Assembly (NCBI GenBank): GCA_903894955.1
Contig: CAITSA010000001.1
Location: 3,769-67,768, forward strand
DNA from: an uncultured bacterium
GTDB lineage: Bacteria; Patescibacteriota; Minisyncoccia; Phycocordibacterales; UBA9973
DNA length: 64,000 nt
Reading direction: 5' to 3'
The first letter of the stretch is position 1. Each line of letters starts with the position of its first letter. The notes beneath the pieces were generated by a model that did not search any database, was not told the DNA's origin, and saw only the letters and a program-made list of their open reading frames with translations. A program made the position numbers and the translations under genes. Shown here piece after piece: positions 1 through 58,918 of this stretch.

Positions 1-2348
1 GCTTTTTGTAAATCTTCCCCAGCAAACCTAATAGCCAACTTGATAATATCTGCAGCCGTTCCCTGAATAGGTGCATTGGTCGCGGTTCGCTCCGCCATGT
101 TTTTTAAAAAAGGAATTCTAGATTTAATATTAGGGAAATATCTTCTTCGACCAAACAATGTTTCTGTATAAGAAAATTTTGTTGCATATTCTTTAATACT
201 ATCTAAATAATCTCGCAATCCAGAAAACTGATTAAAATAATTATCGTAAAATTTTTGCGCTTCTTCACGTGTCCCCCCAAGATTTTTTTTCAAAGCAGAA
301 ACTCCCATACCATAAATAATTCCAAAATTTATCACTTTTGCTTTACGGCGCATTTCACTATCCACTTGATCAAATGGAACATTAAAAACAAAAGAAGCAA
401 TTCCAGTATGAATATCTTTTTTTTCATAAAAAACTTTAGTCATCTTTTTATCTCCTGAGAGCATCGCTGCCACCCGTAATTCAATCTGACTATAATCAAA
501 AGCTACTAGCTTATAACCCTTGGGAGCAATAAAACCCCCTCGAATTCTTCTACCTAATTCTGTTTTGATTGGTAAATTTTGTAGATTTGGATCTTTGGAA
601 GAAAATCTCCCCGTGGTAGTGCCATTTTGTAAAAACTTAGCATGTAAACGACCATCGGTCGTCACCATTTTAGGGATAACATCAACATAAGTAGAAAGCA
701 ATTTCTGTAATTCTCGATAAAATAATATTTCTTTGATAATTAAATGATCTTCTTCTAATTCTTCTAACACTGAAACTTTAGTAGAAAAAGACCCACTAGC
801 ATTTTTCTTTACTTTATTTTTCCCTCCCAAACTTATCCCCATTTTACCAAAAATAACTTCTCCTAATTGTTTGGGTGAATTAATATTAAATTCTACGCCA
901 GCCTGTTTATATATTTTTTTAGTTAAAATATCTAATTCTACGTGATATTCACTTGATAATTTTTCAAAATATTTCTGATCTATTAAAATCCCGTGACTTT
1001 CCATCTCTTTAACTGTGGGAATAATAGGTTTTTCTATTTCTTCATATACTTTTTCTAAACTTGCCCCGCCCTGGCGTGGGTTTTTCTCTTTTAACTTTTT
1101 TAAAATATATTCATAAGCAATATCAAAAGAACCTTGGTCAGTTGATGAAGATGATATATTGGCAAACATTAAAATATCATTTAGTTGTGGATTAGAAATA
1201 TCAGAATTTATAATCCAAAGAGCAATACTAGCTTCTTGAAGTTTTTGTGGGGGAATTAAAGAAAGCAAAGTTTTCTCGGGTCCTCGGTTCTCCAGGTCCC
1301 CTACCCCGGCCAGACCAGCTCCAAAACTTGCTTTCTTTAATTCCCCTTCTGGGGCAGAACGGAGGGCATCTTCGGGAGATTTATGATTATCTCCAAAAAA
1401 GTTTTTCAAACGCCCAAACAAACTCCGAAATTCAAATTTAATAAAAATCTGTTCAATTTTTGTTAAATCTGCATTTTCCCAAAAAGTTTTTAAGGGTATT
1501 GCAAAATCTATCGGCGCATCGTTTCTGATGGTCGCTAAAATTTTAGAAAATAAAGCTTCTTCCTCATTGTCTTTTAATAATTTTACTATTCGATCAGAAA
1601 ATCCCAATTTTTTAAACTTTATTTCATAATTCGTACTTCGTAATTGTTTGTATATTTCTTCTATCGTTCCAAAGTTTACAATTAAACTTTCGGCTGTTTT
1701 TTCACCAATACCCTTGATGCCAATAATGTTATCTGAAGGATCTCCACGCAATCCTTTATAATCTGGTAAAAATTTTGGCTTGAAATGAAATCTCTCTACA
1801 ACCGCATCTTCGTCATATAAAATAGTGTCATTAATTCCTTTCTTTAAAGTATAAACTTGCACTTTTTTATCATCTACTAATTGCATTGTATCCATATCCC
1901 CAGAAGCAATAATTATATTTATACCCCCTCCGCCTTTGGCACCTCCCCCTATATAGGGGGAGGCTGGGCAGGGGTAAAATTGATACACTATCGTTCCCAA
2001 AATGTCATCTGCCTCAAACCCTGGGCTGTCATACATGGGAATATTAAAAGCTTCAAAAATCTGACGGGAATTTTTTAATTGCACAATAAGAGATTCTTCT
2101 GCTTTAGCCCGGCCAGCCTTGTACCCATCATAAGCTTCGTGTCGAAAAGTTTTTCCTGGTAAATCATAACAAGCCACAATATAATCTGGCTTTAAGTCAG
2201 TTACTATTTTCATCAACATACTAGAGAGTCCATAAAGAGCCCCGGTAGGTTCACCTTTGGAAGACATAAATTCCGGCAAGGCATGATAAGCACGGTGAAT
2301 TATAGCGTGAGCATCAAGTAATACTAAAGTTTTAATTTCTTTTTTCAT
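1..2348 (-). CDS. polA: DNA polymerase I, first ~782 codons (3' end runs off the left window edge)
   Basis: ATG at 2348-2346. My translation gives MKKEIKTLVLLDAHAIIHRAYHALP...GFEADDILGT...ASGDMDTMQLV (5'-nuclease domain). Near pos 1-100 it gives MAERTATNAPIQGTAADIIKLAI (polymerase motif) in the same frame (p mod 3 = 2). The ORF track omits it only because no stop lies inside the window. Confidence 0.9.
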   Translation of the reverse strand, partial: MKKEIKTLVLLDAHAIIHRAYHALPEFMSSKGEPTGALYGLSSMLMKIVTDLKPDYIVACYDLPGKTFRHEAYDGYKAGRAKAEESLIVQLKNSRQIFEAFNIPMYDSPGFEADDILGTIVYQFYPCPASPYIGGGAKGGGGINIIIASGDMDTMQLVDDKKVQVYTLKKGINDTILYDEDAVVERFHFKPKFLPDYKGLRGDPSDNIIGIKGIGEKTAESLIVNFGTIEEIYKQLRSTNYEIKFKKLGFSDRIVKLLKDNEEEALFSKILATIRNDAPIDFAIPLKTFWENADLTKIEQIFIKFEFRSLFGRLKNFFGDNHKSPEDALRSAPEGELKKASFGAGLAGVGDLENRGPEKTLLSLIPPQKLQEASIALWIINSDISNPQLNDILMFANISSSSTDQGSFDIAYEYILKKLKEKNPRQGGASLEKVYEEIEKPIIPTVKEMESHGILIDQKYFEKLSSEYHVELDILTKKIYKQAGVEFNINSPKQLGEVIFGKMGISLGGKNKVKKNASGSFSTKVSVLEELEEDHLIIKEILFYRELQKLLSTYVDVIPKMVTTDGRLHAKFLQNGTTTGRFSSKDPNLQNLPIKTELGRRIRGGFIAPKGYKLVAFDYSQIELRVAAMLSGDKKMTKVFYEKKDIHTGIASFVFNVPFDQVDSEMRRKAKVINFGIIYGMGVSALKKNLGGTREEAQKFYDNYFNQFSGLRDYLDSIKEYATKFSYTETLFGRRRYFPNIKSRIPFLKNMAERTATNAPIQGTAADIIKLAIRFAGEDLQK

Positions 2349-2350
2349 AT

Positions 2351-4075
2351 TTAATAAACTTCTTGTTGATAACACCTCTCACAATACACAATCTCTGGTC
2401 TATCTGGAGAATAAGAAGTTTCGAATTCATTAACACATCCTTCTTTCATACACTTTCTATGCCAAAGGTTTAAAGGATTTCTTTGTTTTAATCTCTGGTA
2501 ATGTCTACAATTAGGACATAATCTAGGTAAAGGTAGATTCATCCTTTGGTAGAATTGTAACTCAGCTCCTATGATTTTGAAGGCTTCAGTGCATTGTTCA
2601 TTGCATTCTCCTTTATGTTCACATTCAATGACTTTCCCTACCATATCATCCTTTACTTTTTTAATATCATTAGGAATATCTTCTGTTTTAATGTCTATGG
2701 TATAGTTTCTTTCTTCTCTATCTTTCCATTTAAAACCTTGTTTTAAAGCTTCTTCTTTTGTTAAAGGAAAGTATTCTTGAGCAATGGTTTCGTTGTAACA
2801 GAAGGGTGACAATTCACTTGGAAAGAATTCTCCATATTTGTATATTCTACCCTTACTATCTATATATAGCATATCATTCATATGCTGTATGATTTTTGGA
2901 ACTAATTCTTCGTATTGTTCCTTGGTGTATTGTTTGTTGAGGATGCAGTAGGATTTGTTATGTAAGCCAATGCAACCAAAGAGATTATTACAATTATCAC
3001 AATCGATCGAATATGAAACATTTATTAAATTTAAACCATGTAAAGTACTTAAAATATTAGAACTAAAATCAACATTCAAGGATTCATAAGCTAGTTCTCC
3101 TCCACTAACACCAAAGACATCACTGGTATCTTTTTGTCCCTTAACAGACCTAATACTATATCTAACATTATCAACCTCTGAAACAAAATGAGATTTTTTT
3201 ACATTTCTTGAATTGTTAATAAAATTTCCAGTGACATTAACATAGTTTTTCCCAATCATAAATTTATTAATAGCTTGGCTTTTGACTTTTGTATATTTAT
3301 TAAATAATTCATCAAGCCCATTTTTCAAATTAAGGGAATTTAATAAAGATTCTTTGATTTTAAAAAATTCTTCTTTTGAAACTGGTTTATTTTCAATGTA
3401 AAATTGTTGATTACGAAGATTAGAAGAAAAAAGACAATTCTGACAATTTTTACAATCATATATAAACCAGCAATCTATACAATTTTCACAATCCTGAGCA
3501 AAAAAGGTTTGGTAACAGGTATCAGAATTTATCAACTGAGTTGAAAGTTCACATTTATTTATCCATGAATTATCAACACAATTTTTACTTTCCAAAACAG
3601 TATCACCATACTGACAATTTTCTGAATACCAACTACCAAAAACTAAGTAGCAATCTTTCATATCAACACAAATATTACAATAATCACTTCTTACAGGATT
3701 AACGTTATATAAAGCATATTTTGGAACTTTTTTATCAAGATTATGGAACTGTTCAAAAAATGATTTAGTAAAATCATAATCTACTCCATAATCTCTAGGG
3801 TCCCAATTGTCATCATTTATCCAATATTCTTTATCATAAATTACATAAGGAGATTCGGGAGAATACATACTTATTATTTTTTCTTTAGATTTTGAAGCAC
3901 TATTTTCTTTTTTATATAAAACCCTTTCATTTCTGAATAATAATCTTCGTATTGTTCTACATTCTGGACAAAAAGTCGGAGCAGAAACTTTTATTTTTTT
4001 ATAGAAAGTAAAATCTTCTAGCTCAATTTTAAAGTCTTTTTTACAATTTTGACAAACCTTAGTTTCTACCTGCAT
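2351..4075 (-). CDS. Cys-rich zinc-ribbon protein, paralogue 1 of 3, function unknown
   Basis: 574-aa ORF. The N-terminal module CQNCKKDF..FYKK..FCPECRTIRR is echoed at the C-terminus (FKIIGAELQFYQRMNLPLPRLCPNCRHYQR...YCERCYQQEVY). The centre is full of [ND]C / CxNC repeats. Paralogous to 22579-24303 and 54239-55918. Confidence 0.8.
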   Translation of the reverse strand: MQVETKVCQNCKKDFKIELEDFTFYKKIKVSAPTFCPECRTIRRLLFRNERVLYKKENSASKSKEKIISMYSPESPYVIYDKEYWINDDNWDPRDYGVDYDFTKSFFEQFHNLDKKVPKYALYNVNPVRSDYCNICVDMKDCYLVFGSWYSENCQYGDTVLESKNCVDNSWINKCELSTQLINSDTCYQTFFAQDCENCIDCWFIYDCKNCQNCLFSSNLRNQQFYIENKPVSKEEFFKIKESLLNSLNLKNGLDELFNKYTKVKSQAINKFMIGKNYVNVTGNFINNSRNVKKSHFVSEVDNVRYSIRSVKGQKDTSDVFGVSGGELAYESLNVDFSSNILSTLHGLNLINVSYSIDCDNCNNLFGCIGLHNKSYCILNKQYTKEQYEELVPKIIQHMNDMLYIDSKGRIYKYGEFFPSELSPFCYNETIAQEYFPLTKEEALKQGFKWKDREERNYTIDIKTEDIPNDIKKVKDDMVGKVIECEHKGECNEQCTEAFKIIGAELQFYQRMNLPLPRLCPNCRHYQRLKQRNPLNLWHRKCMKEGCVNEFETSYSPDRPEIVYCERCYQQEVY

Positions 4076-12597: not shown

Positions 12598-12661
12598 AAT
12601 GTACCACTTTTACAATATAGCATATAAGAAAATAAATGTCAACCCCTATCGTTTACGGACA

Positions 12662-13729
12662 ATGAAATTAAGTAAAAAAATCCTTATGAAAAAAGACGAA
12701 AAAAAAGAAATAGCTGATGATTCTTTTTTAGATCAAACCCTCCGCCCTACTCGATGGGATGAATATATTGGTCAAAAACACATAAAAGACAACGTTAAAA
12801 TCTTATTGCGAGCTGCCCAAGAACGCGGGCACATTCCAGAGCATCTTCTTTTTTATGGACCTCCTGGATTAGGGAAAACTACCTTAGCGCATTTAATTGC
12901 CAAAGAAACTGGCAAGCAAATGAAAATTACTTCTGGTCCAGCCATAGAAAAAGTTGGTGACTTGGCTTCAATTCTAACAAATTTGGCTTCTGGGGACATC
13001 CTTTTTATAGATGAAATTCACAGACTAAATAAAATGGTTGAGGAAATACTCTACCCTGCTATGGAGTCTGGAGTTTTAGATATTATTATCGGTAAAGGCC
13101 CTTCCGCGCGTACTATTCAGCTTGATCTCCCCCCTTTTACTTTAATTGCTGCCACGACTCGAGTGGCCATGGTTTCTTCTCCGCTTCGTTCTCGTTTTTC
13201 GGGAGGAGTTTTTCGTTTGGAATTTTACTCTAATGAGGAAATTGCAAAAATTGTTGAAAGGTCCAGTAAACTTTTAAAAATAAATTTAGCTCCGGAAGCC
13301 TTAAAAGAAATTGCGGAAAGGAGTAGGTTTACTCCTCGTACTGCAAATTACTTTTTGAAACGTTGTCGCGATTTCGCTCAAGTGTACCCCGAAGGAAAGC
13401 AAGCTTCCTACGGGGCAGGTGAAAAAGCTATTAGTAAAGAAATGGCGAGAAAAGCTCTTGCTATGCTGGCTATTGATGATATTGGTTTGAATTCTTCAGA
13501 TAGAAAATTTCTGGAAATATTAATTGAAAAATTCAAAGGTGGACCAGTGGGATTAAAAACTATGTCAGCCGCTATGTCAGAAGAAGAAGCGACTGTAGAA
13601 GAAGTGATAGAACCATACTTAATTCAATTAGGTTTACTAGAACGCACCGCCCGCGGAAGAGTTGCGACCAATAAAGCATATGAGCATTTAGGGTTTGACT
13701 CGAAAGAAAAACAAGAAAAACTTTTATAA
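12662..13729 (+). CDS. ruvB: Holliday junction branch-migration ATPase RuvB
   Basis: Start moved to ATG 12662 (MKLSKK). Walker A GPPGLGKTT, Walker B LFIDEIHR, RTANYFLKRCRDFA. Confidence 0.9.
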   Translation: MKLSKKILMKKDEKKEIADDSFLDQTLRPTRWDEYIGQKHIKDNVKILLRAAQERGHIPEHLLFYGPPGLGKTTLAHLIAKETGKQMKITSGPAIEKVGDLASILTNLASGDILFIDEIHRLNKMVEEILYPAMESGVLDIIIGKGPSARTIQLDLPPFTLIAATTRVAMVSSPLRSRFSGGVFRLEFYSNEEIAKIVERSSKLLKINLAPEALKEIAERSRFTPRTANYFLKRCRDFAQVYPEGKQASYGAGEKAISKEMARKALAMLAIDDIGLNSSDRKFLEILIEKFKGGPVGLKTMSAAMSEEEATVEEVIEPYLIQLGLLERTARGRVATNKAYEHLGFDSKEKQEKLL

Positions 13730-14980: not shown

Positions 14981-15010
14981 TAACCCCGTCGCTCGCGAGC
15001 GACGGGGTTA
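14981..15010. terminator. bidirectional terminator, 30-nt perfect palindrome
   Basis: TAACCCCGTCGCTCG|CGAGCGACGGGGTTA flanked by an A-run and a T-run. Shared by the small ORF (+) and tyrS (-). Confidence 0.8.
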
Positions 15011-22578: not shown

Positions 22579-24303
22579 CTAATACACCTCCCCCTGATAA
22601 CATTTCTCACAATACACAATCTCTGGTCTGTCAGGGGAATAAGAAGTTTCAAATTCATTAGAACAGCCTGCTTTCATACACTTTCTATGCCAGAGGTTTA
22701 AAGGATTTCTTTGTTTTAATCTCTGGTAATGTCTACAATTAGGACATAATCTAGGTAAAGGTAGATTCATCCTTTGGTAGAATTGGAGCTCAGCTCCTAT
22801 GATTTTGAAGGCTTCAGTGCATTGTTCATTGCAAGTACCTTGATGCTCACATTCTATGATTTTCCCTACAATATCTTCTTTAACCTCTTTAATATCATCT
22901 GGAATATCATTAGTTTTAATGTCTATATTATAGTTTCTTTCTTCTCTGTCTTTCCACTTATACCCTTGTTTTAAAGCTTCTTCTTTGGTTAAAGGAAAGT
23001 ATTCTTGAGCAATGGTTTCATTGTAACAAAAAGGTGACAATTCACTTGGGAAGAACTCTCCATATTTATATACCCTACCCTCTCTATCTATATAGGGCAT
23101 AGTATTCATATGTTCGATGATTTTTGGGACTAATGCTTCGTATTGTTCCTTAGTGTATTGTTTGTTTAGGATGCAGTATTGTTTGTCTCGGAGGGCGACG
23201 GAGGCAAAGAGGTGATGGGAATCATGACAATCAATAGAATAGTATATATCTTGAGACCCTCTGATCTGAATTGAGAAATATGTTTTAGCCACAGAATGAG
23301 CGGCAGACACATTTTCATAAAGAAGTTCACCTCTTACTCCACAAGCAACACCATCATACATATCACGCATTCCTGCCCCAACCCAAAAACCAAATTTACT
23401 ATCTTCATTCTTACCATCTGCGCAATCAAAAATATAATGACAATTTTTTGCATCAAGAATGTAGTCTCCTGTTGTATTTTGAACATTTATAATATTTGCA
23501 AATTTTCTTGGATATTTAAGCTTTAACTCTTCAAATTTCTTTTTGGATTGAATTAAATTTTGAAAATTACCTGGGTTAAGTTCCCCGAGTTTTTTATCGT
23601 AATCTTCTTTAGAATACTGGACATTAAAAATACAATTAGACTTATTTCGAAGATCAACACAACCGAAACAATTTGAACAATTTTTGCAATCATACATTAA
23701 ACAAGACTCTACGCAATTATTACAATTTTCTACAAAAAATAATTTATATGAATTTTGGCAATTTACTCCCTCGTAACAAAATTCTATTTTACTACAAAAG
23801 TAAATATCTATAGAATCTTTACAGTTAAAAGGTCGATTTCCATAAAAAACATTTTCCGCAAAGCCGCCACCGAATGCCAAATAGCAATTTTTACTATCAT
23901 CTAACCAATTAACATACTCACAAGAGGTAATATTTTTATTTACTAAGTTACTTTTTGGTACTTTTTTAAATAAATCATCAAATTGCCTAAAAAAATTTGA
24001 AGCAAAATCATATGGAGCTCCATAGTTCATAGGGTCCCATTTGTCTCCCCACCAAGATTTTTGATCATAGACTATGCCATTATTAGGTGAATAAGCGGAA
24101 AAAATTTCCTCATTGTGATCTCTTGCATCACATTTTCTTTTATATAAAGTTCTTTCATTTCTAAAGTTCATCCGCCTAGCCATACGACAAGACCAACACC
24201 AAGTAGGAGCTGGAACTTTTATTTTTTCATAAAAGTTAAAATCTTCCAGCTCTATCGTGAAATCTTTTTTACAATTTTGACAAATTCTAGTTTCTTCCTT
24301 CAT
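22579..24303 (-). CDS. Cys-rich zinc-ribbon protein, paralogue 2 of 3
   Basis: 574 aa. The C-terminal ~200 aa are near-identical to paralogue 1; the middle is diverged. Confidence 0.8.
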   Translation of the reverse strand: MKEETRICQNCKKDFTIELEDFNFYEKIKVPAPTWCWSCRMARRMNFRNERTLYKRKCDARDHNEEIFSAYSPNNGIVYDQKSWWGDKWDPMNYGAPYDFASNFFRQFDDLFKKVPKSNLVNKNITSCEYVNWLDDSKNCYLAFGGGFAENVFYGNRPFNCKDSIDIYFCSKIEFCYEGVNCQNSYKLFFVENCNNCVESCLMYDCKNCSNCFGCVDLRNKSNCIFNVQYSKEDYDKKLGELNPGNFQNLIQSKKKFEELKLKYPRKFANIINVQNTTGDYILDAKNCHYIFDCADGKNEDSKFGFWVGAGMRDMYDGVACGVRGELLYENVSAAHSVAKTYFSIQIRGSQDIYYSIDCHDSHHLFASVALRDKQYCILNKQYTKEQYEALVPKIIEHMNTMPYIDREGRVYKYGEFFPSELSPFCYNETIAQEYFPLTKEEALKQGYKWKDREERNYNIDIKTNDIPDDIKEVKEDIVGKIIECEHQGTCNEQCTEAFKIIGAELQFYQRMNLPLPRLCPNCRHYQRLKQRNPLNLWHRKCMKAGCSNEFETSYSPDRPEIVYCEKCYQGEVY

Positions 24304-51685: not shown

Positions 51686-51756
51686 TGCGGCCACCGGGAA
51701 TCGGACCCGAATCTGATCCTTGGCAAGGACCTGTTCTACCATTAAACCATGACCGC
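51686..51756 (-). tRNA. tRNA-Gly (anticodon GCC)
   Basis: Hand-folded: GCGGTCA-TG-GTTT-AATGGTA-GAAC-A-GGTCC-TTGCCAA-GGATC-AGAT-TCGGG-TCCGATT-CCCGG-TGGCCGC-A. Atypical T-loop (C at position 55). Confidence 0.8.
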
Positions 51757-51759
51757 TTT

Positions 51760-52434
51760 TTATTTAAAATTTTCTTTACAAAGTTCAAGCCATTTCATCA
51801 TTTTTTTCTTTAAGCTTGTGTTAGATATTATACTATTTCCAACTCCGTATTGCAATTTTCTTAACTTTGATTTTCCTATTATTACTTGGGATTTATTGAA
51901 ATTTAATCTATTAATACTTAATTTTTCAGACCAAACTTTAATGCAATCTTCTATTACATGATCTGGATACAACAACAACCAAACCTTTATTTTGTCACGT
52001 CCAATTTTAAGAAATTTCTCAGAAAACCTTATAAATACTAGGTGTAAATAGAATTCAGAATTAGCTAATTTTATGTTAAATCTATTGGTTTTATCTCCCT
52101 CACCAGCATAAACCATTAATCCTGCCATGAACAAGGGGTCGTTTTTGTATATTTCAAATTCTTTTTTTGCATCTTCTTCTACTCTTTTATACTTTTTTTC
52201 CAACATTATTCTGCGTCCCTCATTTAATTTTTCTAGATGTGTTTTACTAATTTTTATTTGTTTTTCTGTGTTTGTTTTTTTAATATGTTTTGACCAAGTT
52301 TCATTTTTAAACCAATCACAAAGTGTACTTCGTGAAACATCAAGTAAGGCCTCAATTTCCCTGTAAGTTTTACCCTGTTTTCTTAATTCAAATGCTTTTG
52401 GTTGGTCGTGTCTCATACTGTATAAGTATATCAC
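51760..52434 (-). CDS. HTH + degenerate LAGLIDADG-like protein
   Basis: N-terminal GKTYREIEALLDVSRSTLCDW (resolvase-type HTH). Central PLFMAGLMVYAGEGDKTN resembles a LAGLIDADG motif with the catalytic Asp replaced. Confidence 0.35.
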   Translation of the reverse strand: MIYLYSMRHDQPKAFELRKQGKTYREIEALLDVSRSTLCDWFKNETWSKHIKKTNTEKQIKISKTHLEKLNEGRRIMLEKKYKRVEEDAKKEFEIYKNDPLFMAGLMVYAGEGDKTNRFNIKLANSEFYLHLVFIRFSEKFLKIGRDKIKVWLLLYPDHVIEDCIKVWSEKLSINRLNFNKSQVIIGKSKLRKLQYGVGNSIISNTSLKKKMMKWLELCKENFK

Positions 52435-52495: not shown

Positions 52496-52567
52496 GCACC
52501 CGTAGTGAAATGGATATCATACCCGCCTTCGAAGCGGTCGTTGAGGGTTCGACTCCCCCCGGGTGCA
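52496..52567 (+). tRNA. tRNA-Arg (anticodon UCG)
   Basis: Hand-folded: GCACCCG-TA-GTGA-AATGGATA-TCAT-A-CCCGC-CTTCGAA-GCGGT-CGTT-GAGGG-TTCGACT-CCCCC-CGGGTGC-A. Two stem mismatches (27:43, 50:64). Confidence 0.7.
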
Positions 52568-52577
52568 CAAAGTAACA

Positions 52578-54170
52578 GTGGAACAAAATACTAAAAATTT
52601 AATATCAAAAATCCCCAAAGAAGTTTCACATGTAACAGATACGCTTGAAGAAGCTGGTTTTGAGGCATACTTAGTTGGTGGATGTGTTCGTGATCTTTTA
52701 ATGTCAGAGATCCTGAGTGGAACCGAAAGAGATAAAGAACCAAAGGATTGGGACATTACAACCAACGCTAAACCAGAACAAATTATTAGTCTTTTTGAAA
52801 AGACAGTTTATGAAAATACTTTCGGAACAGTTGGGGTATGTGTTCCACTATTTGGGGAGACTCAGGATGTTTCGCGTGAAACATTGGCAGGAGACGTTTC
52901 ACAAGATTTGCCCGCCGAAATGGAGGGAACATCCAAATATAAGATTATTGAGGTAACTCCTTATAGAATTGAGGCAAAATATAGTGATTTTAGACATCCA
53001 GACGAGATAAAGTTTAGTGATAATCTAGAAGACGACCTTAAAAGGCGTGATTTTACAATAAACTCGATAGCTCTTAGTTCTAAAGGACACCTAATTGATT
53101 TATTTAATGGCATAAAGGACATTAAAAATAAGACACTAAAAGCGGTAGGGAATCCAGATGACCGTTTTGCTGAAGATGCTCTTCGCATGTTGCGTGCTGT
53201 GCGCTTTTCTTGCCAGCTTAATTTTTCTGTGTCATATGAAACAACGGAAAGTATTTTAAAAAATTCAGATTTAATAAGAAAAATATCGGCAGAAAGAATT
53301 CATGATGAGTTTGTAAAAATAATTATGTCATCGAATCCAGCGAGTGGAATTGTGATGTTGCAAAAATTTAATTTGTTAAAAAATATAATTCCAGAATTAG
53401 AAGAGGGGATAAATTGTGAACAGGGAGGGGAACATATTTATGATGTGTGGAATCATTTACTACACGCTCTTTCACATGCTGCAAATAAGAATTGGTTTTT
53501 AGAAATAAGGCTTGCAGCCCTTTTTCATGATATTGGGAAACCAAGAAGTCGAAGAGAATCGGAATCTGTTTCTAAGAAGAAATATACATTTTATGGCCAC
53601 GAAGTTGTTGGTGCACGAATGACGAAAAAAATAATGGAGAGATTAAAATTTCCTAAAAAAGAAATTGAGTTAGTTGAAAAATTAATACGTAACCATATGT
53701 TTTTTTCTGATACAGAATTAATTACACTTTCTGCAGTGCGAAGAATTATCACCAAGGTGGGGGTGGAAAACATTTGGTTGTTAATGAATGTCCGTGAGTG
53801 CGACAGAGTAGGCATGAAGAAAAAAGAAACTCCTTATAGACTTCGAAAATATTTTGCCATGATAGAAGAAGCTCTTCGTGACCCTATTTCTGCCCGTCAG
53901 CTTAAAATTAATGGGGAATTTATGATCAAAGAGCTTGGTATGAAGCCTGGACCTCGGATGGGATGGATTTTAAATGCTTTATTGGAAGAAGTTTTGGATG
54001 CTCCAGAAAAAAATACAGTGGAACATTTGTCAGAGTTAGCTAAATCTTTAAATATGTTGGGCAACAACGAGCTAAAAATCTTAGGGGAGCGAGGAAAAGA
54101 AAAAAAAGAAGAAGCAGAAGAAGCAGAAATTAGTAAGCTTCACGAGAAACATGGGGTGAGGAGAAAATAA
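52578..54170 (+). CDS. cca: CCA-adding enzyme / poly(A) polymerase family with HD domain (start uncertain: GTG 52563 overlaps the tRNA, GTG 52578 preferred)
   Basis: EAYLVGGCVRD, RDFTINS, HD motif LFHDIGKP. Confidence 0.8.
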   Translation: MEQNTKNLISKIPKEVSHVTDTLEEAGFEAYLVGGCVRDLLMSEILSGTERDKEPKDWDITTNAKPEQIISLFEKTVYENTFGTVGVCVPLFGETQDVSRETLAGDVSQDLPAEMEGTSKYKIIEVTPYRIEAKYSDFRHPDEIKFSDNLEDDLKRRDFTINSIALSSKGHLIDLFNGIKDIKNKTLKAVGNPDDRFAEDALRMLRAVRFSCQLNFSVSYETTESILKNSDLIRKISAERIHDEFVKIIMSSNPASGIVMLQKFNLLKNIIPELEEGINCEQGGEHIYDVWNHLLHALSHAANKNWFLEIRLAALFHDIGKPRSRRESESVSKKKYTFYGHEVVGARMTKKIMERLKFPKKEIELVEKLIRNHMFFSDTELITLSAVRRIITKVGVENIWLLMNVRECDRVGMKKKETPYRLRKYFAMIEEALRDPISARQLKINGEFMIKELGMKPGPRMGWILNALLEEVLDAPEKNTVEHLSELAKSLNMLGNNELKILGERGKEKKEEAEEAEISKLHEKHGVRRK

Positions 54171-54238
54171 TATTTAGTAGATTTCTTGCTGATAACACCC
54201 CGATAGCAGAGCAAGCTCGCTACGGGGCAGGAGTTTCA

Positions 54239-55918
54239 CTAATATATCTCCTGCTGATAACATTGTTCGCAATATACTTTTTCGTCTCGGTCGGGGGAGT
54301 AGGCAGTTTCAAATTCGTTTTCGCATTTTTTGGAACCGTGAATATGACTTTCTATTTTACACAAACACGAACGATGCCAGAGTTTACGAGGATTGCGGTT
54401 TTTCATTCGATCGTGATTTCTACATTCAAAATCTTTGTGTGGTAGGGGAATAATCATTCTTTTATAGAAATCAAATTCTCCTTTTGTGATACGGAAATTC
54501 TTTTTACAATCTTTACAGACTAAAACTTGATTTAAAATATCTTCAGTGACTTCTTCTATGGTTTCCGGCATATTTTCTTCTTTTATTGTTTCTTTTCCAT
54601 AAGTGCCAGAAGTTTCACTTTGCCAATTGAAACCTTTTTCTTTTGCTTCTTTTTCATTTATTGGAAAATATTCTTGGGCTAATGTTTCATTATATCCAAA
54701 AGCACTAACAAAAGGAGGAATAAAATCACCATAAACTCCCTCCTTTTTCATATTTTCAATAATCTCTTCTTTTAATTTTTCATATTCTTCTTTAGTATAT
54801 TGCTTGTTTAGGATGCAATATTTTTTCTTTTTTAGTCCGAGACAGCCAAAACAACTATCACAATTATGTAAACTTTCTGAATATTCTGAATTACTTGTAT
54901 ACATCATATAAACTGAGTGTTTTATGTTATATGTTTGGAGTGTGCCCATTACATCTAGGTTTAATTCTGGCTTATAGTAAGTGTTGTTCATATCCCAACA
55001 ATCAATAGTTCCTTCTGTATCCCCTACATATTTACAGTTTTTTGTATTCTCCGCATCAAAACCATGGGTTGTGTCATGACAGTTATACATATAATCCCCA
55101 GTAGCATTTTTACATTTTACTTGATGTGAAAATTTTACAATTGCTTCTTTTTTAAATTTTTCATATTCTTTTTTTGCTTCAGCTAATTTTTTATTTGAAG
55201 ATAAAATTTCTTTTTTCTTTTTCTCATATTCTTCTTTTGAAACAGGTTGGTTTAAAATATGATAACTTTTATTTCTTAAGTTGATGGAAAAAATACAGTT
55301 TTGACAATTGCGTAAATTAAAACAAAAGATTAAATCCATACTTGTCTCACAGCCATCAGAGAACATGCAGTTGTAGCATTTTCGACAATCAATACACTCG
55401 TATAAAAATTCAGAATCTTGTACAAAATCATTGTCAATTGCAAATTTACTTCGATAAACTAGTCGGCCATACATTGAATCCTCGTTTTTTTGTGCTCCGA
55501 ATATTAAGTAACAATTTTTATTATCTTCTGAATTATTTACATAATCGCTATTTATGCCATCAATATTTAAAAGAGAGATGCGGGGAACTTTGTTTCGAAG
55601 TTCTAGCCACTGTTCAAAAAATGGTCGACTTGGATCATAGTCTTGTCCATAATCTACTCCGTCCCAATCATCACCCCACCAAATATGTTGATCATAAACA
55701 GGGAAAGGGGTATTGGGAGGGTAAAGGGAAACGATAGGTTTACCACTTTTACTGCAAGTTCTTTTATAAAGAGTTCTTTCATTACGAAAACAAAGTCTAC
55801 GGGCTACTCTGCAATCCGGACAATAGTTTGGAGCAGGAGCTTTCATTTTTTCATAAAAATTTAAATCATCTTGCTCTATTTCAAAATCTTTTTTACAAGT
55901 TTTACAAATTTTTTGCAT
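54239..55918 (-). CDS. Cys-rich zinc-ribbon protein, paralogue 3 of 3
   Basis: 559 aa. Same N- and C-terminal modules (CKTCKKDFEIEQDDLNFYEK...CPDCRVARR; ...VYCEQCYQQEIY), more diverged. Confidence 0.8.
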   Translation of the reverse strand: MQKICKTCKKDFEIEQDDLNFYEKMKAPAPNYCPDCRVARRLCFRNERTLYKRTCSKSGKPIVSLYPPNTPFPVYDQHIWWGDDWDGVDYGQDYDPSRPFFEQWLELRNKVPRISLLNIDGINSDYVNNSEDNKNCYLIFGAQKNEDSMYGRLVYRSKFAIDNDFVQDSEFLYECIDCRKCYNCMFSDGCETSMDLIFCFNLRNCQNCIFSINLRNKSYHILNQPVSKEEYEKKKKEILSSNKKLAEAKKEYEKFKKEAIVKFSHQVKCKNATGDYMYNCHDTTHGFDAENTKNCKYVGDTEGTIDCWDMNNTYYKPELNLDVMGTLQTYNIKHSVYMMYTSNSEYSESLHNCDSCFGCLGLKKKKYCILNKQYTKEEYEKLKEEIIENMKKEGVYGDFIPPFVSAFGYNETLAQEYFPINEKEAKEKGFNWQSETSGTYGKETIKEENMPETIEEVTEDILNQVLVCKDCKKNFRITKGEFDFYKRMIIPLPHKDFECRNHDRMKNRNPRKLWHRSCLCKIESHIHGSKKCENEFETAYSPDRDEKVYCEQCYQQEIY

Positions 55919-56625: not shown

Positions 56626-57441
56626 TTAAATCTCTAGCCAAATTGGACAGTGGTCCGAGCCGTAATAATCAGACAACATGCCCGTGGCTTTTATCCCGAC
56701 GCTTTTAGGTCGGGACCCCGACAACGAAGTTCGTCGGGGCTTTAGATCTTTGAAAAAAATTTCATCGGCAAAAAAATAATCAAGACGCCAGCCGACATTT
56801 CTATCTCTAGCGCGAGTTTTGATATCCCAATATGTATAAGCGCCAATTTTTTCTGGATAAAACTTTCTAAATACATCAATGAATTTATTTTTTATTACTT
56901 TATCAATCCAAGCACGTTCTATGGGCAAGAAACCAGTATTTTCAACGTTAGCTTTCGGGCGGGCAAGGTCGATTTCTTCATGGGCTGTATTTATATCTCC
57001 ACAAAAAATTACATTTTCGCCATTCTTTCGCAACTTCAGGATAAATTTTAGAAAAGCTTCGTAAAATTCTAATTTATATTTTAATCTATGTGGTCCTTGG
57101 CCACCATTTGGAAAATATCCAGTAATGATGGTGCAATTTTTTAATTTTACACCAAGCAATCTTCCCTCGTTGTCTAATTTTTTTACACCCATACCATAAA
57201 AAACTTCTCTCGGTTTTTCTTTAGTGTAAATTGCTACCCCACTGTATCCTTTCTTAATTTTTGGATGTGAAAAGTAAGAATAATATCCAGAAATATTTCG
57301 TACTTCGGGAGGCAATTGTTCTGGAGTGGCTTTTGTTTCTTGTAGACATAAAATATCTGGTCTGTTTTTAAATAGGGGAATAAAAAATCCTTGTTTTGCT
57401 GTTGCCCGAAGCCCGTTGGTGTTCCAAGAAATTATTTTCAT
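56626..57441 (-). CDS. xthA: exodeoxyribonuclease III
   Basis: [31 protein letters not shown]. Confidence 0.9.
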   Translation of the reverse strand: [271 protein letters not shown]

Positions 57442-58003: not shown

Positions 58004-58918
58004 TTACTGTTTGTTATGAAATTTTTTGTGTACTTCTCTTAATTGTTTGTCTGTTACGTGTGTATAGATTTGTGTAGTATTGATATTAGAATGTCCGAGC
58101 ATTGCTTGGACAGAACGAAGGTCAGCACCATTTGAAAGTAAGTCAGTAGCAAAGCAATGTCTTATTACATGTGGAGTTACCTTTTTTGATATTCCTGCAA
58201 TGGTGGCATATCTCTTTACAATTCTTTCAATCGAACGACTAGTTAGACCATCACTTTTTGATACTTCATCTTTGCCTTTTACAAAAAGGGCATCAGACAT
58301 ATCTTTTCTCAAAGCTAAATAATCTCTCACTGCTTTTTTTGCTTCATCAGATAAAAAAACCACGCGGACCTTGCCACCTTTGCCACGAATTGAAAATTCA
58401 TCTAAGTGTAAATCCAGATCATTTCTTAGTGAGCACAGTTCGGAAACACGCAGGCCGGTAGAAAAAAGCATTTCTAAAATTGCCTTATCACGGTACCTTC
58501 TTTCTAAGTTTCTTTCTTTATCTGGAGCGAGTAAAAGTCTTTTTAATTCTTCTTGTGAAATAATATCAATTTGTCTCTCATTGATTTTTGCCAGTTCTAT
58601 GTAATCGGCTGGTAGAGAAGCGATGTTTCTTTTTGTGAGAAATTTAAGAAAAGTCCGAAGAGCAATTAAATAATAATTTTGTGTTTTTTTTGTTACAGTA
58701 TTGCCAGTGGCACGGTTGTTTCCGGTTGACTGGCGATTGAGCCAAATCCGAAAATCTCGGACCTTGGTGTCCGTAATGTCTTTTGGGTCGGTTATTTTTG
58801 TTTGATTAAGAAAGACAGTCAAATAATGGTCGTAATTTTCTATTGTTCTAATAGCACGTCCTTTTTCTATTTCAATATATTCCAAAAATTCGGTTTTAAG
58901 CTGTTTAAGAGAGACCAT
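58004..58918 (-). CDS. tyrosine recombinase, XerC/XerD-like
   Basis: GLRVSEL, HVIRHCFAT, LGHSNINTTQIYTHV (R-H-R-Y catalytic set). Confidence 0.85.
   Translation of the reverse strand: MVSLKQLKTEFLEYIEIEKGRAIRTIENYDHYLTVFLNQTKITDPKDITDTKVRDFRIWLNRQSTGNNRATGNTVTKKTQNYYLIALRTFLKFLTKRNIASLPADYIELAKINERQIDIISQEELKRLLLAPDKERNLERRYRDKAILEMLFSTGLRVSELCSLRNDLDLHLDEFSIRGKGGKVRVVFLSDEAKKAVRDYLALRKDMSDALFVKGKDEVSKSDGLTSRSIERIVKRYATIAGISKKVTPHVIRHCFATDLLSNGADLRSVQAMLGHSNINTTQIYTHVTDKQLREVHKKFHNKQ

Follow-up and report, generated by a model that had tools for sequence, protein, structure and literature searches.

Two Versions of One Gene End

Why should a gene be followed, 41 nt past its stop codon, by a second version of its own last eight codons in which every difference is synonymous? 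The question is raised by a locus in a 64-kb stretch of DNA from an uncultured member of the Patescibacteria (the whole stretch is hereafter called the window, or W), in which a gene for a predicted zinc-ribbon protein of 559 amino acids, taken from the list of open reading frames (ORFs; 54239..55918, minus strand), converges on cca, the gene for the CCA-adding enzyme (52563..54170, plus strand; Pfam domains PolyA_pol, PolyA_pol_RNAbd, HD, and tRNA_NucTran2_2). We argue below that this locus is probably the scar of a recombination event in which the 3' end of a divergent allele was imported together with its downstream flank, the left side being exchanged by homology and the right side joined illegitimately. 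In what follows, L-numbers designate the loci fetched from relatives of the window and P-numbers the proteins that these loci encode.

Read along the minus strand, the gene ends at positions 54262-54239 with TGT TAT CAG CAG GAG ATA TAT TAG, its functional last eight codons (the proximal copy, TGTTATCAGCAGGAGATATATTAG), and after a spacer of 41 nt (54238-54198, TGAAACTCCTGCCCCGTAGCGAGCTTGCTCTGCTATCGGGG) there follows, at positions 54197-54174, TGT TAT CAG CAA GAA ATC TAC TAA (the distal copy, TGTTATCAGCAAGAAATCTACTAA). Both translate into C-Y-Q-Q-E-I-Y-stop, and the recoded duplication reported in the initial annotation is thereby confirmed by the sequence itself and by the ORF at 54239..55918. 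The two copies are identical in their first 11 nt and differ at five positions, the third positions of codons 4-8, all of which are synonymous including the change of one stop codon into another; if five differences were scattered at random over 24 nt, all would fall on third positions with a probability of 56/42504, about 0.0013, or lower if they were also required to be synonymous. Chance similarity, the objection that the initial annotation had raised against itself, is excluded as well, for a degenerate search of the 24-mer allowing up to three mismatches retrieved from the window only the proximal copy, the distal copy, and the end of the paralogous gene at 2351..4075, and nothing from 100 shuffled sequences. 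The proximal copy is written in codons that are in minority usage in this genome (CAG 20%, GAG 16%, TAG 8 of 45 stops). The stop codon of cca (54168-54170), a gene on which the initial annotation was silent, lies 3 nt past the distal copy.

The gene under study is the third of three paralogues in the window (2351..4075, 22579..24303, and 54239..55918, here paralogues 1-3), which share 42-44% amino acid identity and all terminate in CxxCYQ[QG]E[IV]Y. At the DNA level no part of the family is better conserved than this 3' terminus, with about 81% nucleotide identity between the paralogue ends. The homologues of these proteins exceed 5000, all from Patescibacteria of the Paceibacteria/Nomurabacteria type and all annotated as hypothetical; Pfam returns only weak treble-clef matches (zf_Tbcl) for paralogue 3, NCBIfam holds no family for its protein, and exact-protein look-ups of the 559-residue product and of P0001 yielded no record. 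The zinc-ribbon family is multicopy, spread across the Patescibacteria, and without an assigned function.

Which of the Two Ends Is Ancestral

In the initial annotation the distal copy was regarded as the relic 3' end of a different, once-functional paralogue. The convergent arrangement of the family gene and cca is kept in L001-L010 and in L016, and these loci, together with L011, allow the ancestral junction to be read directly. The orthologues in L001-L010, with about 80% identity, are separated from cca by intergenic spacers of 53-64 nt that contain unrelated hairpins and no duplicate end. The closest relative of paralogue 3 is P0121, encoded on L011 (92% amino acid and 89% nucleotide identity), while the cca gene closest to that of the window lies on L016 (85% amino acid identity). 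The family gene of L016 ends with TGTTATCAACAAGAAATCTACTAA, followed by 10 nt and then by the stop codon of cca, with no hairpin in between. The distal copy differs from the gene end of L016 at 1 of 24 positions and from that of L011 at 2 of 24, versus 6 of 24 in either case for the proximal copy. Moreover, a four-way alignment shows that W matches the gene-end/cca junction of L016 from the distal TGT exactly onward, while upstream of this TGT there is the hairpin in W and the family gene in L016; on its cca side, L011 has the same junction as L016. Neither the gene/cca junction of L016 nor the cca-side junction of L011 contains anything corresponding to the 41-nt spacer (54198..54238, minus strand). 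Because of the gene ends of L016 and L011, and because junction homology starts at the distal TGT, the distal copy (54174..54197, minus strand) is the original end of the resident gene, the proximal copy and the spacer being the novelty. It is indeed what remains of a gene end that once worked, as had been proposed, but by position and sequence this end is the resident gene's own rather than that of another paralogue. The relic is presumably young, since it is nearly unchanged from the state seen in L016 and L011.

Two observations concern the same junction in these relatives. In L011 it is occupied by a 1.4-kb insertion (1799-3213) carrying a single ORF of 452 codons on the opposite strand and bounded by a direct repeat of about 20 nt (AAATTTACTAAA[G/A]AATATT), which spans the stop codon of the family gene. 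The product of this ORF has no significant Pfam match, no PADLOC match, and no homologue in the window, and the insertion is an independent event at the same site. When L016 (1019-2671) is compared with L011 (113-1792), the last 80 nt or so of the family gene are about 9% divergent and cca is similar, versus 27-39% divergence in the remainder of the family gene; this pattern suggests that here, too, the gene body was replaced, the crossover lying within the conserved terminus and leaving no relic.

A Probably Imported 3' Segment

If the distal copy is the old end of the gene, where does the new one come from? The answer starts from the comparison with L011, whose divergence from W is 5.3% over gene nt 1021-1496 and 23.9% over gene nt 1497-1680. 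When all sites are used, the likelihood favours a breakpoint at gene nt 1496 (log-likelihood gain 21.9). Divergence at third positions steps from 11% to 45% at codon 498, with 17 differences in 158 codons before the step (codons 341-498) and 28 in 62 after it (codons 499-560; Fisher p = 1e-7), and this codon is also the best single breakpoint for third positions, with a score equalled in 1 of 2000 permutations. W and L011 differ at gene nt 1467 and then from 1497 onward. The intervening tract of 29 identical nucleotides (gene nt 1468-1496; window 54423..54451, minus strand) is the probable zone of the left homologous crossover, and the segment that follows it (gene nt 1497-1680; 54239..54422, minus strand), which includes the functional last eight codons, would be the imported part of the gene.

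The relationships of the two segments differ accordingly in the alignments. In the segment preceding the breakpoint W and L011 are 95% identical, with 80% identity to the outgroups L001 and L007; in the terminal segment they are 76% identical, and each has 71-78% identity to the same outgroups. The sister relationship of W and L011 thus appears to be lost in the terminal segment. Composition changes along with divergence: The GC content at third codon positions (GC3) is 0.377 in the terminal segment of W versus 0.209 in the rest of the gene (binomial p = 0.002), while L011 presents no comparable shift (0.279 versus 0.251). The initial annotation had concluded that the resident gene was replaced by recombination within the conserved terminus. 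Replacement of the gene end by recombination is supported, but the exchange would involve only some 184 nt of the gene and 41 nt of flank, not the whole gene, and the foreign part would be the present functional end.

The imported patch holds a nine-residue segment of the CKIESHIHGSKK type. Since both other paralogues of the window are devoid of such a segment, neither can be the donor; both were also searched for a downstream relic or hairpin, and neither feature is present. The simplest source would be some other lineage's divergent allele, belonging to the same orthologue group, although a copy of the same subtype elsewhere in the source genome, outside the 64-kb window, may have served instead.

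A Dispersed Palindrome after the Stop Codon

Most of the spacer consists of a GC-rich palindrome, which extends to the first nucleotide of the distal copy (54197..54231; in minus-strand sense CCTGCCCCGTAGCGAGCTTGCTCTGCTATCGGGGT). Folded as DNA, the spacer hairpin has an energy of -9.8 kcal/mol (z = -4.0), and none of 200 shuffles is as good; the RNA fold of the whole region is not significant (z = -1.35), significance being confined to the palindrome. Searches against Rfam at permissive E-values gave only chance-level matches in the region and only four tRNAs in the whole window.

The palindrome has relatives elsewhere, found by BLAST of the 41 nt against all fetched sequence and by a pattern search that located four distinct copies in 390 kb. 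The first is that of the spacer (pattern match at 54197-54228). The second, at 13386..13419 on the plus strand (pattern match at 13386-13416), lies in frame within ruvB (12599..13729) and encodes (Y)PEGKQASYGAG; the 11 residues PEGKQASYGAG form an insertion that is absent from P0248, an 80% identical RuvB, and from the other homologues inspected. The third is in frame within the gene for an RluA-like pseudouridine synthase of another Nomurabacteria genome (L028/L062, 90-123; pattern match at 90-120), where it encodes PAPEQARYGAG, and the fourth (L063, 1440-1470) lies 11 nt past the stop codon of another gene of the zinc-ribbon family, in opposite orientation. The copies have in common CCTGCCCCGTA, the core AGCTTGCT, and CGGGGT, within a layout of about 35 nt that can be written as CCCCG-stem-AGCAAGCT-stem'-TACGGGGCAGG. 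Their inner stem covaries (AGC/GCT, AGG/CCT, ACC/GGT, ACG/CGT), and shuffled versions of each copy fold much less well than the copy itself (z = -3.2 to -4.0). No consistent duplication borders the copies, the window yielded no transposase, and the viral contigs scanned contain no match to the element. The view that the hairpin is a real element is supported by these data, according to which it is an insertional, dispersed mini-element and not a private terminator of this gene, even if it probably acts also as a terminator between the two convergent genes.

Palindromes inside bacterial protein-coding genes, including those resembling miniature inverted-repeat transposable elements (MITE) or repetitive extragenic palindromes (REP) and the Rickettsia palindromic elements (RPE), have been reviewed (PMC10969869; for the context of RPE see PMC1779305). 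Like RPE, the element described here is a short, dispersed, GC-rich palindrome in an AT-rich small genome, it occurs both between genes and in frame within conserved genes to which it adds a short peptide, and it is present or absent among orthologues. RPE have a length of about 100-150 nt, and the W element is much shorter, with about 35 nt and four distinct copies so far. MITE are marked by terminal inverted repeats with a target-site duplication and REP by a linked RAYT or transposase; for the W element the former are not established, and within the window no transposase came up.

Some minor features can be mentioned beside the element. A 7-bp stem can form between GCAGGAG of the proximal copy (54254-54248) and CTCCTGC at the start of the element (54233-54227), with the last Tyr codon and TAG in its loop; GCAGGAG contains the G-ending minority codons, and the stem may be due to chance or to selection for a tandem-hairpin terminator. 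In the ExoIII-like gene xth (56626..57441, minus strand) there is a different GC-rich palindrome (56716-56739; CCCCGACGAACTTCGTTGTCGGGG in gene sense), which amounts to an in-frame insertion of 13 residues (RRTSLSGSRPKSV) with respect to the orthologues of L001 and L003. A perfect GC palindrome of 24 nt lies between convergent ORFs at 14984-15007 (CCCCGTCGCTCGCGAGCGACGGGG, with AAAAATAA and TTATTTTA on its two sides); in appearance it is a classical bidirectional terminator, with a CCCCG...CGGGG clamp like that of the other palindromes.

The Proposed Event

In evolutionary terms, these elements could be assembled into the following sequence of steps. The ancestral gene ended with ...TGT TAT CAR CAA GAA ATY TAC TAA, at 3-10 nt from the stop codon of cca and without a hairpin. 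The incoming piece would have comprised the last 184 nt or so of the donor gene with its stop codon, followed by 7 nt and the downstream GC-rich palindrome. On the left, a homologous crossover would have taken place within the 29-nt identical tract; on the right, an illegitimate join would have formed where the palindrome ends on its 3' side (GGGG|TGT). Resident nt 1497-1656, about 160 nt, would thus have been replaced, and the last 24 nt of the resident gene would have survived as a non-functional remnant, stranded in front of cca by the palindrome, with the original gene end pushed 41 nt downstream. The ancestral junction, the breakpoint, the unusual composition of the patch, and the dispersal of the palindrome are seen directly in the sequences; we infer that all this happened in a single step of homology-facilitated illegitimate recombination (HFIR), that the DNA was taken up by transformation, and that patch and palindrome came in together. 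It is plausible that the donor had the element downstream of its gene, since hairpins after the stop codon are common in the family (44 of 67 distinct gene ends surveyed in the fetched loci have a minimum free energy of -8 kcal/mol or lower in the first 70 nt after the stop) and since the copy in L063 occupies just such a position.

The event would also account for the synonymous differences, because each copy would have diverged as a working gene end in a separate lineage. The initial annotation had reached this conclusion, divergence of both copies under coding constraint, from the argument that drift in a dead copy would not be limited to synonymous sites. The conclusion stands, with all five differences being synonymous; the argument had overlooked that changes in the live copy alone would produce the same pattern, a possibility rejected by the divergence over 184 nt and by the near-unchanged distal copy.

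HFIR is known in bacteria capable of natural transformation (Streptococcus pneumoniae, Acinetobacter, and Pseudomonas stutzeri), according to PMC5361080 and its references 41, 42, and 47, and recombination with one-sided homology and an illegitimate join has been invoked for the displacement of effectors of the Rhs, contact-dependent inhibition (CDI), and type VI secretion (T6SS) systems, which leaves orphaned 3' regions (PMC5361080). Our locus, as reconstructed, resembles these cases in several respects: One end of the donor DNA is anchored by homology in a conserved gene while the other joins illegitimately, a foreign flank is co-inserted, the prior 3' end is displaced downstream as an orphan, and the outcome is a mosaic gene in which divergence changes abruptly at the breakpoint. 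The passage from low to high divergence within a homologous gene is seen at gene nt 1496, and a foreign tract without counterpart, followed by abrupt resumption of the resident sequence, is seen in the spacer and at the distal TGT. The scale is tiny beside that of the known cases, with some 225 nt gained, some 160 nt lost, and an orphan of 24 nt, and there is no toxin/immunity logic as in Rhs, CDI, and T6SS.

Several results weigh against this reconstruction. A donor lineage with the tract in its native context did not emerge: Among the best 120 full-length homologues listed, none exceeds the 82% identity of L011 over the last 62 residues; a search with the 65 C-terminal residues found four short proteins, all with 75% identity or less; and scans of genome contigs and metagenome contigs gave at best 72% and 78%, respectively, the GTDB representatives being without the source genome itself. 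When the substitutions of the terminal segment are assigned to branches with five outgroups, 23 are derived in W and 18 in L011, and the direction of the event therefore rests on the relic, synteny, and GC3. The comparison relies on one close relative only, L011, which is a short Logan contig and, having its own 1.4-kb insertion at this very junction, does not provide a clean reference. Finally, the palindrome is insertional by itself, as its copy in ruvB indicates, and for this reason it may have arrived separately from the patch.

Relics beside Other Members of the Family

Is the locus of the window unique? The initial annotation had suggested looking for similar relic termini next to other members of the family, and among the 67 distinct family ends a copy of the last eight codons within 1 kb downstream is present in three cases: W, L065, and L032. 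In L065 (2335-2438) the functional end TGTTACCAGAACGCAGTAATATAA (CYQNAVI-stop) is followed by a 56-nt spacer and by a relic, TGTTACCAAAACGAAGTTATATAA (CYQNEVI-stop), which has an intact frame and keeps the Glu of the family consensus. In L032 (2879-2971) an intact-frame relic of 31 codons lies 220 nt downstream of a full-length gene, just before a gene with a Fic motif (HPFxxGNGR, read from the ORF translation).

Other fragments were observed in passing. The relic of L065 is followed by a long inverted repeat (ACCCCGCACCTTTAACGGAT...ATCCGTTAAAGGTGCGGGGT). L072 has, at about 2500-2608, a stand-alone 3' fragment of at least 35 codons adjoining an apparently truncated infA, and a truncated third tandem copy of a family gene is found in L029 (4506) and L068 (2033).

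These cases could be taken to mean that the conserved 3' terminus is a recurrent anchor for recombination, through which lineages exchange gene bodies and 3' flanks at a family-specific hot spot where the palindrome marks or promotes breaks; the relics of W, L065, L032, and L072, as well as the insertion of L011, would then not be independent accidents. We consider such a hot spot unlikely. Because the length of the relics and the spacers vary from case to case, these structures would rather represent repeated accidents at a conserved, recombination-prone terminus.

Alternative Explanations

The order of events might have been different, with the palindrome inserted first, just upstream of the eighth codon from the end (Cys), where it would have split the terminal CxxC knuckle, and with the import of a homologous end as the subsequent repair. 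The element does insert into coding sequence, adding 11 residues to RuvB and lying in frame in the rluA-like gene, the relic directly adjoins it, and it has no stop codon in the frame of the relic. Two events are needed here where one suffices, and the import of about 184 nt is still required. Moreover, insertion of the element alone makes no 24-nt repeat, because the copies in ruvB and the rluA-like gene are without long flanking duplications. This order of events overlaps with the single-step import and could be told from it only by the donor sequence; we regard it as distinctly unlikely.

A second alternative is modelled on icd of Escherichia coli, in which e14 or phage 21 integrates, leaving icdC as a C-terminal pseudogene (PMC13626634). 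In our locus an integrative element with a recoded 3' end would have inserted, and nearly all of it would later have been deleted along with most of the displaced end, sparing 41 nt and the 24-nt relic. The layout, in which a functional recoded end is followed by an insert and then by the original end, corresponds exactly to icd ... e14 ... icdC (PMC13626634): The functional gene has a recoded, largely synonymous substitute end, the original one survives beyond the insert, and loss of the insert would restore it. The 11 nt that are identical at the start of the two copies resemble an att core, and the 1.4-kb, single-gene insertion of L011 at the same junction, with its direct repeat of about 20 nt, suggests a site that has been repeatedly hit. 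Yet the icd copies are separated by a 15-kb prophage with an integrase, while those of W are 41 nt apart with no integrase between or beside them; the neighbours are cca and a TMEM175-like gene, and the only tyrosine recombinase nearby (58004..58918) is of Xer type and 3.7 kb away. The 41 nt consist of 7 nt plus a dispersed palindrome and contain no recognizable element ends. The icd relic equals the substituted segment in length, and integration at the core would here have displaced a relic of about 184 nt, of which 24 nt remain, so that a second, precisely placed deletion is needed. An icd-type history is, on balance, improbable.

It may be asked whether the structure exists at all, given that the source is a 71.8-kb contig of a metagenome-assembled genome in which two strain haplotypes could have been joined. 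The exact tract shared by the two ends is only 11 nt long. The k-mers usually employed by assemblers are longer than this. The two sides are 24% apart, far beyond strain-level variation, and analogous structures are present in independent assemblies of other samples (L065 and L032); hence an assembly artefact seems very improbable.

Hardly any credence can be given to programmed use of the second copy, be it phase-variable exchange among paralogue ends, precise removal of the DNA between the 11-nt repeats, or a bypass in translation that leads from the last Tyr codon to the Tyr codon of the distal copy. The family is multicopy, its 3' ends are about 81% identical in nucleotides versus 42-44% identity of the proteins overall, and relic ends recur beside other members, all of which would suit the cassette exchange proposed in the initial annotation. 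That proposal is not borne out: Among the neighbours scanned there is no silent-cassette array, dedicated recombinase, or reverse transcriptase, the nearby recombinase being the Xer-type one, the relics comprise 8, 10, and 31 codons with spacers unrelated in sequence, and the relic beside the cca gene of L011 is degenerate. A bypass that leaves TAT-TAG and skips 47 nt before landing on the distal TAT would formally resemble that of T4 gene 60, with its TAT take-off codon, stop codon inside a hairpin, 47-nt gap, and TAT landing codon, but it is very unlikely. Two specific systems were considered and rejected: a diversity-generating retroelement with its pair of variable and template repeats, in view of the fact that 2 of the 5 differences fall on C in the distal copy, the putative template, which does not fit the adenine pattern of these elements, that all lie at synonymous third positions and not at codon positions 1-2, where such elements mostly vary, and that the scanned neighbours include no reverse transcriptase; and conversion from silent cassettes of the pilE/pilS type, as there is just one relic of 24 nt and the other two members are full-length and relic-free.

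Equally remote is a local duplication of the last 24 nt within this genome, after which the live copy would have changed synonymously and the dead copy not at all, for even if it explains the synonymous differences without foreign DNA, and if selection for a terminator could favour the G-ending codons of the proximal copy that form the 7-bp stem with the spacer, the divergence is not limited to the 24-mer but extends, from a sharp breakpoint, over the last 184 nt, the probability that all five changes would hit the 8 synonymous sites of the live copy rather than the 24 neutral sites of the dead one is (8/32)^5, about 0.001, and the GC3 shift points to a foreign origin. A simple tandem duplication was discarded on the grounds that the 41-nt spacer is not repeated and that the distal copy is followed by the cca gene, not by the repeat.

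Significance and Additional Observations

A recombination scar of this sort is of an ordinary and known kind, of modest interest in itself, and the present locus is a clean example of it. It displays inter-lineage recombination at base-pair resolution in an uncultivated, small-genome member of the Patescibacteria, in which one can see the breakpoint, the flank brought in along with the gene end, and the terminus that was left behind, and scars like this would constitute direct evidence that these organisms take up divergent DNA and integrate it. The locus further illustrates a route by which a terminator-like hairpin can be gained between tightly convergent genes. For annotation, and for the study of selection, it carries a caution: A purely synonymous duplicate need not mean a functioning second copy. 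The more unusual lead comes from the RPE-like palindromes that lie in frame in ruvB, in the rluA-like gene and, with a different sequence, in xth, for which we found no description in Patescibacteria; a literature search on palindromic insertions in genomes of this group, also called the candidate phyla radiation, retrieved nothing relevant.

One further observation pertains to the surroundings of the locus. Within a cluster of four tRNA genes, between those at 51686-51756 and 52496-52567, there is a single ORF of 224 codons (51760..52434, minus strand) with only a weak HTH_23 match. It is not found at the corresponding place of the synteny block in L001, and it may be a mobile or homing-type gene.

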